DNA from: a virus
Taxonomy: Monodnaviria; Loebvirae; Hofneiviricota; Faserviricetes; Tubulavirales; Inoviridae
Strand: one strand, 5' to 3'
IMG/VR virus record: IMGVR_UViG_2565956711_000002
Coordinates: 1 to 7,551 of that record
DNA length: 7,551 nucleotides
Both the position numbers and the translations under genes were made by a program. The notes under the pieces are model-generated. The model was not told the origin of the DNA and searched no databases. It saw only the letters and a program-made list of their open reading frames with translations. Each line of letters begins with the position of its first letter. The first letter of the stretch is position 1. This document shows positions 5,325 through 6,228 of the stretch, piece by piece.

Positions 5325-5350
5325 CATTTCTAAGAATTTAGAGATATGAT
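5322..5350 (+). promoter_or_regulatory. Putative divergent promoter for the 62-aa ORF; its -35 overlaps the rep -35
   Basis: -35 TCAACA (5322-5327), 17-nt spacer, -10 TATGAT (5345-5350). GAGG Shine-Dalgarno at 5367-5370, ATG at 5378. The 10-mer ACATTTCTAA (5325-5334) overlaps the -35 and spacer. Confidence 0.35.
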
Positions 5351-5377
5351 GCAAGGCTAGCAGAATGAGGAAAGAGC

Positions 5378-5566
5378 ATGCCTACAAAGCACATAAACGA
5401 TGTTCAATGGCGAAAAATAGAGAAAGAAACCGTTAGAGCGGTATCAACCCTAGCTGTTCCAGTTAAAGATACCAAAATGCTCGAATGGATAATCGCCAAA
5501 GGGCTAGAGACGATCACAGAAGACGACTACCGCAAGTTCCTGAAGACAGAAAGCAAAAAAAAATAA
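5378..5566 (+). CDS. Hypothetical small protein (62 aa), candidate phage regulator
   Basis: Good Shine-Dalgarno (GAGG, 7-nt spacing) and ATG. Transcribed divergently from rep, the position taken by repressors in lysogenic filamentous phages. Charged protein with a lysine-rich C-terminus; no recognisable motif. Confidence 0.5.
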   Translation: MPTKHINDVQWRKIEKETVRAVSTLAVPVKDTKMLEWIIAKGLETITEDDYRKFLKTESKKK

Positions 5567-5581
5567 GCGAGCAGGAAGAAA

Positions 5582-5636
5582 ATACGGGAAACCGTACTAA
5601 AGTTCGGGTGTCACAGAACCCCGAACCGCTTCGCGG
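5582..5636. other. Cluster of three short GC-rich stem-loops between the two small ORFs
   Basis: TACGG-GAAA-CCGTA (5583-5596); GTTCGGG-11 nt-CCCGAAC (5602-5626); CCGC-TTC-GCGG (5626-5636). No U-run follows on either strand, so this is not a classic intrinsic terminator. Confidence 0.3.
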
Positions 5637-5758
5637 CGAAAAAACGAACAACAGCAGAGCTTGCGAAATCGGAATTAAGATAAGCTGGACGTCAAACGAT
5701 TAAACAAAAATACGCCATTATGCAAAGATCAAATGACACACTCTAAAAGGTATAGGTA

Positions 5759-6025
5759 ATGAACAAAGACCAGATAATACAGGTACTTAATGAAACAGAG
5801 AATGACAGCCCCGTAGCAAGAGCAGAATTAGCAAGATTCCTCGTAAAAACAATCTACAATTTTGTAAAAATGGAGAGGCCAGAAGGTGAAGGTCTGGACG
5901 GACGTGATGGCCCAGAAAGGCGCAGCATGGGAAAAATTGTAGATGCGGCAGAAAACCACTACTTTAACATGATAAAAGAAAGCCATGAAAAACAGGGAAT
6001 TGGAAGAAGAAACCCTGAGGAATGA
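5759..6025 (+). CDS. Hypothetical acidic protein (88 aa), accessory gene next to the att site
   Basis: ATG at 5759 with AAAGG about 8 nt upstream; stop TGA at 6023-6025, 6 nt before the dif-like site. Highly charged, soluble-looking composition; no family recognised. Confidence 0.45.
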   Translation: MNKDQIIQVLNETENDSPVARAELARFLVKTIYNFVKMERPEGEGLDGRDGPERRSMGKIVDAAENHYFNMIKESHEKQGIGRRNPEE

Positions 6026-6031
6026 CGCCCT

Positions 6032-6058
6032 AATGCGCATAATGACGTTATGCTAAAG
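6032..6058 (+). other. dif-like XerC/XerD recombination site (prophage att junction)
   Basis: AATGCGCATAA-TGACG-TTATGCTAAAG compared with E. coli dif GGTGCGCATAA-TGTATA-TTATGTTAAAT (recalled): each arm matches at 9 of 11 positions, with a divergent, apparently 5-nt, central region. Located next to hipA, where chromosomal dif lies in E. coli K-12 (recalled). Confidence 0.7.
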
Positions 6059-6059
6059 A

Positions 6060-6096
6060 GGCAGCTGCGGGGAGAAATTCTCGCAGCTGCCTTTTT
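6060..6096 (+). terminator. Intrinsic terminator (10-bp GC-rich stem plus T5)
   Basis: GGCAGCTGCG (6060-6069) pairs with CGCAGCTGCC (6082-6091) around a 12-nt loop, followed by TTTTT (6092-6096). Lies downstream of the 88-aa ORF but on the far side of the dif-like site. Confidence 0.6.
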
Positions 6097-6104
6097 GACA
6101 TATG

Positions 6105-6146
6105 GACATTTCTAACGAGCCAGTAATTAGACATTTCTAATGAGCC
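6105..6146 (+). repeat. Two 17-bp direct repeats GACATTTCTAA(C/T)GAGCC with 25-bp periodicity, flanked by TTGACA hexamers
   Basis: Copies at 6105-6121 and 6130-6146 differ at one position. TTGACA occurs at 6094-6099 and 6146-6151. The core ACATTTCTAA also occurs at 5325-5334 in the rep / small-ORF promoter region. Confidence 0.6.
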
Positions 6147-6228
6147 TTGACAAATATAAACCAAGGAAGAATCCAGTCGTTGGCGGTCATGATTGTCATG
6201 CTCATTAACAATGACCAAACCCCATATC

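Follow-up and report, generated by a model that had tools for sequence, protein, structure and literature searches.

Direct repeats between a filamentous prophage and hipA very probably form the right end of an IS1202-family element that targets dif

Insertion sequences of the IS1202 family, ISAba32/ISAjo2 subgroup, have TGT...ACA tips and imperfect terminal inverted repeats (TIRs) of 24–26 bp, and an inner copy of the repeat, which by the family norm lies 7–10 bp away, forms an extra transposase site (PMC10132070). Published identities between the two TIRs in the subgroup range over 15–25 of 24–28 positions, and the ISKpn21 transposase is 44% identical to TnpAjo2 (PMC10132070). Insertion generates a 5-bp duplication, and the left end (IRL) comes to lie at a distance of 5 bp from dif, on its XerC side (PMC10132070; bioRxiv 10.1101/2022.12.17.520857). 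The family transposase models on TnsB, and its binding to the repeats has been inferred from Tn7 TnsB (PMC10132070); we found no biochemical demonstration of transposase binding to such sites for any member. Circles of ISKpn21 have been reported in the literature. Integration of the filamentous phage YpfPhi at dif restores a dif site on one side, and the phage forms tandem arrays (PMC4266046). A literature search found no description of defence cargo or phage-like sites in IS1202-family elements.

The window analysed here is a stretch of 7,551 nucleotides in which a filamentous prophage is followed by hipA (Table 1). The regulatory ORFs of the prophage are on the + strand, and ∼1.6 kb of its left end is outside the window. 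In E. coli G5 and NCTC9040, tandem prophages of 7,669 bp are 98.9% identical to it, and Pfam Zot, DUF2523 and G2P_X_C were found on the homologous phage genes. Exact-protein look-ups with the 88-aa ORF and the 620-aa protein found nothing but this phage in other hosts, in no case adjoining hipA; in PEC148 the same phage adjoins hipA, with attP site 2 and without the repeats described below. In a related phage, the slot between the ori-like motif and attP holds an unrelated 64-aa ORF. Between the prophage and hipA, two 17-mers, GACATTTCTAACGAGCC (6105–6121) and GACATTTCTAATGAGCC (6130–6146), lie at a start-to-start distance of 25 bp, TTGACA hexamers occur at 6095–6100 and 6147–6152, and the 10-mer ACATTTCTAA is present in exactly three copies in the window, at 5324, 6106 and 6131. 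An initial annotation had placed all of these correctly, as re-checking confirmed, and had read them either as operator iterons for a phage regulator on both sides of the attachment site or as a remnant of an earlier or tandem integration.

Table 1. Features of the window, in order of position.
Feature	Position	Strand	Details
Filamentous (inovirus) prophage	1..6062	-	zot-like gene, DUF2523, 620-aa adsorption-protein-like ORF, coat, rep 4139-5254
Predicted sigma-70 promoter of small phage ORF	5321..5350	+	promoter scan
Inovirus intergenic motif	5583..5636	+	small hairpin, then AAAGTTC GGGTGTCACAGAACCCCGAAC CGCTTCGCGG; conserved across phages and IS
Phage ORF of 88 aa, no family	5759..6025	+	variable slot between ori-like motif and attP
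dif-like site 1 of phage attP	6032..6058	+	XerC-like arm AATGCGCATAA, 5-nt centre TGACG, XerD-like arm TTATGCTAAAG
Long hairpin (attP fold apex), then T-run	6055..6096	+	DNA fold z -3.8
Inverted XerD-arm-like half-site TTTTTGACATA	6092..6102	+	sole remainder of attP site 2; holds first TTGACA
Inner transposase-binding repeat (putative) of IS right end	6103..6121	+	reverse complement GGCTCGTTAGAAATGTCCA; holds first 17-mer
8-bp spacer AGTAATTA between inner and terminal repeats	6122..6129	+	
Terminal inverted repeat IRR, ends ...TTGACA-3'	6130..6152	+	holds second 17-mer and second TTGACA
Right copy of 5-bp target-site duplication AATAT	6153..6157	.	K-12 has AGTAT here, directly after dif
Chromosomal flank and hipA	6158..7551	-	hipA CDS 6229-7551, 440 aa

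We conclude that 6103–6152 is very probably the right end (IRR) of an IS1202-family transporter IS of the ISAba32/ISAjo2 ‘dif-hunter’ type, with the 17-mers as its transposase sites, with a prophage–IS recombinant junction at 6034–6062, and with no relation to the 10-mer in the phage. The inner copy of the repeat (6103–6121) lies 8 bp from the terminal copy (6130–6148), as in the subgroup, and agrees with the inner repeats of IRL and IRR in nine distinct ends of related elements, which have the common pattern TGTnnnGGCTCAn6ATGTC-N7-8-GGCTCn7ATGTCC. The initial annotation was right to treat the 17-mers as a real repeat, the two-copy architecture recurring in these nine ends. The second TTGACA is the transposon tip and follows the family rule 5'-TGT...ACA-3'; all IRR tips examined read (C/T)TTGACA, save degenerate copies in Scandinavium and Phytobacter. 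The IRL of the same element in strain MB50, TGTAGAGGCTCAATGCTAATGTCT-N6-GGCTCATTAGGAATGTCC, begins TGTAGAGG, and 18 of 24 positions are identical between it and the IRR of the window. Only the right copy of the target-site duplication (TSD) is within the window, which contains neither a transposase gene nor an IRL. By analogy with the TnsB sites in Tn7 ends, a pair of transposase protomers would occupy the terminal and sub-terminal copies, build a transpososome and cleave after the terminal ...ACA. The insertion point of the IS lies 5 bp past the XerC arm of dif, and AATAT was duplicated there.

The intact parent element is present in strains that have no filamentous prophage, such as MB50, in which 6034–6160 (127 bp) is found at 100% identity. 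The MB50 unit of 2,761 bp reads dif-AATAT-IRL, a 465-aa transposase, a Shedu gene, site 1, hairpin, IRR and AATAT, so that AATAT stands on both sides of an element 5 bp from dif. Plasmid pCO_Eco4457-1 carries an identical unit (same protein accessions), there flanked on both sides by AAGTC in place of AATAT and again 5 bp away from a XerC arm, that of a dif-like site on the plasmid. Since the same unit occurs on chromosome and plasmid with different TSDs, it appears to transpose as a whole, repeats included; we infer its mobility from these identical copies at two loci and from its occurrence on eight plasmids of five genera. An IRL 5 bp from the XerC arm, in fixed orientation, was seen in MB50, OSUCMP42NDM, A29, G5, L011 and two plasmids. 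The MB50 transposase matches NF033594 (ISNCY_2) at 483 bits (cutoff 250), and its length falls within the 400–500 aa of the family's DDE type; the element of the window and MB50 agrees point by point with the published description of the family. An end of this type adjoins hipA in 228 of 5,426 complete E. coli genomes (∼4%), and relatives of the IS backbone occur in 895 genomes, mostly on plasmids. The lineage is annotated only as ‘ISNCY family transposase’.

Comparison with prophage-free E. coli, which the initial annotation had suggested, gave two outcomes. MB50 has the segment unchanged, and in K-12 and REL606 dif is followed directly by AGTATAAACC, with 6059–6152 missing; K-12 reads dif-AGTATAAACCAAGG at the insertion point. 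The assignment of 6059–6228 to the chromosomal hipA flank was wrong, since homology to K-12 and REL606 begins only at ∼6150–6158. A chromosomal origin of 6059–6150 is ruled out, the segment being missing from K-12, REL606 and ∼3,500 other genomes, and the border between chromosome and mobile DNA moves from ∼6058 to 6153–6158.

The third copy of the 10-mer (5324–5333) lies within the small-ORF promoter (−35 TCAACA, 18-nt spacer and −10 TATGAT in the promoter scan), where it overlaps the predicted −35 and spacer. This promoter belongs to the phage and not to the repeat system. The context of the 10-mer is identical in all 46 copies of the phage in the fetched loci, IS-free hosts included, and the 10-mer is missing from the promoter region of a related phage (80% rep identity). 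The match does not extend past 10 bases (11/17 to the repeat), no 17-mer was found in the promoter copy at up to four mismatches, and the 10-mer covers only the variable centre of the transposase site, missing its invariant GGCTC...C flanks. As a pre-specified word it is expected 0.028 times in the phage part (P∼0.03). The fair post-hoc test takes any 10-mer of the two 17-mers, for which the mean is 0.28 and at least one match occurs in 18% of dinucleotide shuffles, rising to 36% for any 10-mer of the 50-bp end. The third copy is present as initially annotated, but the statistical weight placed on it was too great. It is most likely a chance match unrelated to the repeats; with the pre-specified P∼0.03 and the overlap with the predicted −35 and spacer, a functional coincidence is conceivable. 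As for the TTGACA hexamers, the promoter scan calls no promoter at either. Of the two, only the second, as the transposon tip, is conserved; at the XerD half-site most relatives have TTTTCAACATA, with TTCAACA where the first hexamer lies. An outward −35 at the tip, as part of a junction promoter in IS circles, is conceivable; by eye the IRL has no convincing −10. An Rfam scan of 5200–6300 gave only chance-level miRNA and sRNA matches.

The window matches the G5 phage up to 6062 and is 100% identical to the MB50 IS from 6034. The 29 bp at 6034–6062 are identical in both parents and are therefore the crossover interval between phage and IS. Site 1 is conserved in 24 distinct variants across Enterobacterales, Y. 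pestis included. The hairpin of the window (GCAGCTGCG...CGCAGCTGC) is of the MB50 IS type and not the phage type, and its stem still pairs where the C:G of other variants has become A:T by a double change. It is possibly a terminator after the slot gene; a simple scan did not call it, its loop being too long for the scan's rule. The IS lineage has an attP-like site 1, hairpin and XerD half-site just inside IRR, and these three are what is left of attP in the window, IRR having replaced the XerC-arm partner. The two inverted Xer halves forming a forked hairpin, typical of a CTX-type attP, are present in the intact G5 phage and not in the window. The prophage has very probably recombined with the IS within the shared 29-bp site, most likely through deletion between two direct copies of site 1, by Xer or short homology, in an array of dif, phage and IS. 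Such a deletion would have cost the phage its site 2 and the IS its left end, transposase and cargo, so that IRR was left as an orphan. A precursor array exists in nature (L011/L012), with the order phage, site 2, TSD, IRL, transposase gene, cargo, site 1, hairpin and IRR. The phage–IRR junction itself was not found in the 5,426 complete E. coli genomes, GTDB representatives, JGI metagenomes or 72,556 PLSDB plasmids, nor was a record found of the ORF spanning the junction region; the orphan status of IRR and the deletion route are presumptive.

Two other readings concern the repeats themselves. That they serve a phage regulator as operators or iterons, with a 10-mer in common with the rep/small-ORF promoter, is extremely improbable. 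The exact 10-mer does occur in a predicted promoter, at a nominal chance of 0.028, but the phage copy is 11/17 without the invariant flanks, at a post-hoc chance of 0.18–0.36, and the promoter region of a related phage is completely different. Moreover, the repeats are not in the phage genome: they are missing from complete phage copies (the G5 tandem junctions, PEC148, and the related phage in SW071618), and even at up to four mismatches the 17-mer is absent from these phage genomes and is thus no conserved phage site. They are 100% identical in phage-free strains and on plasmids, where they lie within the IS, and in MB50 the identity extends over 6059–6240. Persistence of 6059–6228 with its repeats in a prophage-free strain, which MB50 provides, was the observation that the initial annotation had set against itself. 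It is scarcely more credible that a related filamentous phage or IMEX left the segment behind after integrating earlier or in tandem. This phage is often found in tandem arrays, and 6032–6102, with site 1, hairpin and XerD half-site, is phage-attP-like; 6103–6152, however, has no counterpart in any phage examined and mirrors an IRL beside a transposase gene, and tandem phage junctions read site 2-CATTATGCGCACC-AGTGCGCAG instead. What survives of the remnant idea is a second dif-targeting mobile element, which is an IS1202-family IS and not a phage or tandem copy.

The junction can be explained in ways other than deletion. The prophage may be nested within an intact transporter IS, with IRL, transposase and perhaps also Shedu beyond the left end of the prophage, outside the window, and IRR functional, the phage being a passenger of a dif-hunting transposon after single-crossover insertion of its replicative form at site 1. 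We regard this as a real but minority possibility. The junction, with phage to 6062 and IS from 6034, fits insertion of a circular phage at site 1 equally well, the right-hand TSD is intact, and the IS lineage tolerates cargo of 0.8 kb to more than 1.7 kb; the composite of ∼10.4 kb, however, would far exceed any known family member, no such structure was found in the 5,426 complete E. coli genomes or in the 72,556 plasmids, and the side-by-side phage–IS arrays from which deletion could proceed are common (G5, L011/L012 and plasmid p98219). An assembly chimera at the shared 29 bp, the real genome having phage, site 2 and then a complete IS, is improbable, though less so than a phage operator or phage remnant. 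The junction is unique, missing from all collections searched, and falls in sequence repeated in any phage–IS array, but 29 identical bases are below the k-mers or read lengths normal for assembly, and the flanks on both sides are otherwise clean. A chimera would leave the identity of the repeats unaffected.

The motif at 5583–5636 is likely a Rep-recognition or ori-like element. It is near-invariant in If1 (within the annotated major intergenic region), in Alteromonas phiAFP1 and in the Erwinia, Lelliottia and SW071618 prophages, and it recurs in IS elements of MB50, Z142-4, L012, L027, L028, L042 and L044, where the cargo slot has it at its left edge. The defence genes of this lineage occupy a slot flanked by phage-derived sequences, the ori-like motif and half of a CTX-type attP. 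We tentatively propose that a widespread Enterobacterales lineage of dif-hunting transporter IS built its cargo slot from an inovirus intergenic module, with the Rep/ori-like motif as left border, attP site 1, hairpin and XerD half-site fused to IRR as right border, and interchangeable single-gene defence cargo (Shedu, SIR2, AbiJ-like or a zinc-ribbon set). With both slot borders in common, phage and IS could swap cargo or fuse by Xer-mediated or short-homology recombination. The phage::IS recombinant of the window, its crossover lying within the 29-bp site, would then be the first of its kind to be captured. Phage Rep or the packaging machinery might also act on the IS slot.

These results remove a false lead, that of phage operators flanking the attachment site. 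IS elements of this type bring defence genes (Shedu, SIR2) to dif and to plasmid dif-like sites, so that the dif/hipA locus is a minor defence hotspot, driven by IS and shared with Xer-dependent phages, and the shared phage-derived slot borders offer a possible route for cargo exchange between IS and inovirus.

Among known systems, CTXphi, YpfPhi and CUS-1 resemble the phage in attP type: site 1, hairpin and inverted site 2 of the G5 phage form a forked stem (−30.7 kcal/mol, z −6.6), and the G5-type phage resembles YpfPhi in its integration at dif, in the restoration of dif on one side and in its tandem arrays. The window copy differs in having no site 2 centre or XerC arm. Identity with CUS-1/YpfPhi is not supported by the sequence, the attP type being all they have in common; short stretches of the phage show only ∼63–84% similarity to the Y. 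pestis prophage, and its rep is closer to that of If1 (74%). Acinetobacter pdif modules likewise consist of single accessory genes between Xer-type sites, in association with IS1202-family elements. The slot here differs in being bounded by one dif-like site (5-nt centre) and an ori-like motif instead of two pdif sites, and in lying within the IS, where any Xer-mediated exchange is hypothetical. Tn7 resembles it in having several transposase sites at either end, TGT/ACA tips and a conserved chromosomal locus as its specific target, whereas the present element has two sites per end, no TnsA, TnsC or TnsD partners, and dif/XerC, not glmS, as target. The ‘dif hunters’ ISAjo2, ISAba32 and ISAba71 of Acinetobacter have the same end architecture, targeting rule and TSD length, but are simple 1.5-kb IS without cargo, with distantly related transposases, on Acinetobacter plasmids and chromosomes. 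Also similar is tISKpn21 (IS1202 family, ISAba32/ISAjo2 subgroup; PMC10132070): the MB50 transposase is 72% identical to that of the ISKpn21 family, and the two elements share TGT...ACA tips, a 5-bp TSD, a passenger gene, two GGCTCA-N-ATGTC copies per end and the 5-bp distance between IRL and the XerC arm of dif or pdif. In E. coli G5, tISKpn21 lies at the very same AATAT adjoining hipA. ISKpn21 differs in carrying DUF6904 on the opposite strand and in having no ori-like motif, site 1 or hairpin inside IRR, and the element of the window belongs to a lineage distinct from it.

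The initial annotation described a 10-mer (ACATTTCTAA) shared by a phage promoter and two 17-bp direct repeats near TTGACA hexamers, and read the repeats as phage operators or the remnant of an integration. The description is accurate: a word search finds exactly three copies of the 10-mer in the window, with the repeats and hexamers in place (table). K-12 (DH5alpha), in which dif (ATTTAACATAATATACATTATGCGCACC) runs directly into AGTATAAACCAAGGAAG... and hipA, lacks 6059-6152, whereas strain MB50, which has no filamentous prophage, matches 6034-6160 at 100%. Sequence 6059-6240 is matched by 3,765 of 5,426 complete E. 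coli genomes, and the match begins only at ∼6150-6155 in all but 228 of the 3,765. Therefore, 6059-6152 is not chromosomal flank. A contig (L038; L-numbers denote fetched genomic loci) from a MAG labelled Candidatus Nanosynbacter has the phage attP and, after it, an Escherichia-like flank of the hipA side (AACATAAACCAAGGGAGAATCCAG); its taxonomic assignment is probably binning contamination.

Features of the window, and cargo of the IS lineage to which its repeats belong
Feature	Position	Strand	Content or match
Filamentous prophage	1-6062		zot-like gene, DUF2523, 620-aa adsorption-like protein, coat genes, rep, small ORFs
rep	4139-5254	minus
Imperfect inverted repeat	5265-5284 / 5299-5318		80% complementary
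10-mer	5324, 6106, 6131
Small phage ORFs	5378-5566 and 5759-6025	plus
∼55-bp motif	5583-5636
Truncated attP	6032-6102
TTGACA hexamers	6095-6100 and 6147-6152
17-mers, GACATTTCTAA(C/T)GAGCC	6105-6121 and 6130-6146		spacing 25 bp
hipA	6229-7551	minus
Cargo: Shedu			SduA, 382 bits
Cargo: SIR2 protein			PDC-S25, 276 bits
Cargo: AbiJ_NTD4+DUF7014 proteins
Cargo: zinc-ribbon three-gene set
Cargo: 245-aa protein			no family match
Cargo: multi-gene set			no family match

In MB50 the matching sequence forms one end of a transposase-encoding unit. At the left end, dif is followed by AATAT and then TGTAGAGGCTCAATGCTAATGTCT ATTTGT GGCTCATTAGGAATGTCC; the interior encodes a 465-aa 'ISNCY family transposase' and then a Shedu nuclease; after Shedu come TGTGCGCATAATGACGTTATGCTAAAG, a hairpin and then TTTTTGACATA; and the right end reads TGGACATTTCTAACGAGCC AGTAATTA GACATTTCTAATGAGCCTTGACA before AATAT and AAACCAAGG. 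This right end mirrors the left one (18/24 identical in the terminal repeat), and in both GGCTCAnnnnnnATGTC is found twice, as a terminal copy and again further in. The unit spans 2,761 bp, with a 5-bp duplication on either side, and begins 5 bp past the XerC arm of dif. An identical unit with the same protein accessions occurs in plasmid pCO_Eco4457-1, flanked by AAGTC and 5 bp from the XerC arm of the plasmid's dif-like site, and the right end is found at 100% identity on eight large plasmids from five genera, which argues that the 17-mers travel together with the rest of the unit. Its transposase matches NF033594 at 483 bits (cutoff 250) and shares 72% identity with an ISKpn21-family transposase. 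Nine distinct ends of related elements share the layout TGTnnnGGCTCAn6ATGTC-N7-8-GGCTCn7ATGTCC, and all the sequence-level features that define the ISAjo2/ISAba32 subgroup are present. The repeats belong to a feature of known type, the right end, with its two sites, of a dif-hunting transporter IS of the IS1202 family, and are inferred to be bound by the transposase. Of the TTGACA hexamers, the second is no more than the tip of the transposon; the first falls inside an XerD-like half-site and is not conserved, most relatives having TTCAACA.

The promoter copy of the 10-mer agrees with the transposase site only at its centre, the part that varies among ends: its reverse complement reads AAATTC-TTAGAAATGT-T against GGCTCA-TTAGAAATGT-C, without the near-invariant GGCTC and final C. 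The 17-mer, at up to 4 mismatches, is absent from complete genomes of the phage (the G5 tandem pair, PEC148) and of one relative. Because its context is the same in 46 of 46 copies of the phage among the fetched loci, IS-free hosts included, the 10-mer is intrinsic phage promoter sequence; in a promoter scan it overlaps the predicted -35 TCAACA and the spacer, and the promoter region of a related phage with an 80% identical rep is unrelated. Chance expectation had been put far below one. This holds for the single word in the phage part (0.028 in 1-6058), but a scan for recurrence effectively tests every 10-mer of the repeats, so that a mean of 0.28 and at least one match in 18% of dinucleotide-preserving shuffles apply; for any 10-mer of the whole 50-bp end the fraction is 36%. 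We conclude that the match is coincidental; with only the variable centre shared and no 17-mer in the phage genomes, the proposed link between promoter and repeats is not supported. If a phage operator is sought, the imperfect inverted repeat of 20 bp located between the start codon of rep and the predicted promoter is a stronger candidate than the 10-mer.

The window prophage shares 98.9% identity with a prophage of 7,669 bp that E. coli G5 and NCTC9040 carry at dif in tandem copies. In the intact phage, attP is built from site 1 (AATGCGCATAA-TGACG-TTATGCTAAAG), then a hairpin, then site 2 in inverted orientation (TTTTCAACATAA-CGAGTCACA-CATTATGCGCACC), and as ssDNA it is predicted to adopt a forked-stem fold (-30.7 kcal/mol, z -6.6; G5 phage, L004 15030-15130). 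The attP of CTX/YpfPhi likewise comprises two inverted dif-like sites around a hairpin, the matching arrangement being reported for YpfPhi (PMC4266046). Integration restores dif at the left junction and, at the right junction, leaves site 2 attached to the XerC arm of the chromosome. Since the window attP lacks the centre and XerC arm of site 2, the right inverted repeat (IRR) of the IS following directly after TTTTTGACATA, the right end of this prophage copy is without a complete attP. Two to three copies of the phage stand in tandem at dif in several further bacterial genomes of 5.1-5.4 Mb (L004 G5, L005 PEC148, L006-L026, L047), and an E. coli plasmid of 273 kb carries a variant with a different replication module; in these genomes and on this plasmid the phage is repeatedly found beside IS1202-family elements. 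On the other side of dif, G5 (L004 1986-7283) and A29 (L029 1-3822) carry paired site-specific integrase genes and a 788-aa hypothetical gene, which together resemble a further island next to dif.

The window matches the G5 phage as far as 6062 and the MB50 IS from 6034 onward, which places the crossover inside the 29 shared bases forming site 1. Normal Xer integration, with its crossover in site 2, cannot yield such a junction. We favour, at a little better than even, a deletion between two direct copies of site 1 in an array [dif-phage-site 2][IRL-tnp-cargo-site 1-hairpin-IRR], which would leave an orphan IRR: the required array occurs in L011/L012, and phage-plus-ISKpn21 arrays recur, in G5 and plasmid p98219. 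The alternative, in which a circular phage genome enters the IS by way of site 1 and the prophage comes to be nested in an intact IS, we regard as less likely. The IS right end adjoins, and has recombined with, an Xer-dependent filamentous prophage.

Of more interest than the repeats themselves are this phage::IS recombinant and the cargo slot of the IS lineage, which is apparently phage-derived. A right-hand module of gene stop, site 1, hairpin, TTTTCAACATA and IRR is present in every member examined (MB50, Z142-4, OSUCMP42NDM, A29, an IncF plasmid, L012, and species representatives of Enterobacter, Scandinavium, Cedecea and Buttiauxella), and the motif AAAGTTC GGGTGTCACAGAACCCCGAAC CGCTTCGCGG lies directly 3' of the transposase gene in most. 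The cargo between motif and site 1 varies among members (table; L002 9334-12094, L003, L012 10366-13085, L027, L028, L029, L037, L042 and L044), and the Shedu, SIR2/PDC-S25, AbiJ_NTD4+DUF7014 and zinc-ribbon cargo is interchangeable and of defence type. Of the 5,426 E. coli genomes, 895 contain relatives of the IS backbone, for the most part on plasmids. The phage slot, from motif to site 1, is variable too (an 88-aa ORF in the window, an unrelated 64-aa ORF in SW071618), and phage-type and IS-type sequences split exactly at the XerD-arm/central-region border of site 2 in 24 of 24 variants, the point at which the IRR is fused in the IS type. In E. coli A29, an IS3-family insertion splits the hairpin of the IS right-end module (L029 6904-8300).

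In the IS lineage the ∼55-bp motif, a small hairpin followed by AAAGTTCGGGTGTCACAGAACCCCGAACCGCTTCGCGG, forms the left border of the slot. It is near-invariant in distant inoviruses with a homologous rep, where it invariably comes after rep and then a small ORF, and is on these grounds likely a Rep-recognition or origin element; carriers include If1 (within the annotated major intergenic region), Alteromonas phiAFP1, and Erwinia and Lelliottia prophages. MB50 has two copies, either side of Shedu (L002 10988 and 11940), and further copies lie at L048 ∼3374 and L049 1501-1541. A literature search found no published description of phage-like slot borders or defence cargo in IS1202-family elements.

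The ISAjo2/ISAba32 subgroup of the IS1202 family has 5'-TGT...ACA-3' tips and 24-26-bp imperfect TIRs, each accompanied 7-10 bp away by a second, inner copy proposed to serve as an additional transposase site; its members make 5-bp duplications and insert so that the left inverted repeat (IRL) lies on the XerC side of dif or pdif at a distance of 5 bp (Harmer, Pong and Hall, PMC10132070; Siguier et al., bioRxiv 10.1101/2022.12.17.520857), a description that fits the repeats, target-site duplication and placement of the MB50-type element exactly. ISKpn21, ISKpn65 and ISRel10 are each described as a 'transporter IS' with a passenger gene (PMC10132070; bioRxiv 10.1101/2022.12.17.520857). The IS lineage of the window is distinct from ISKpn21: unlike that lineage, ISKpn21 proper lacks both borders of the cargo slot, the motif on one side and site 1 with the hairpin module on the other.
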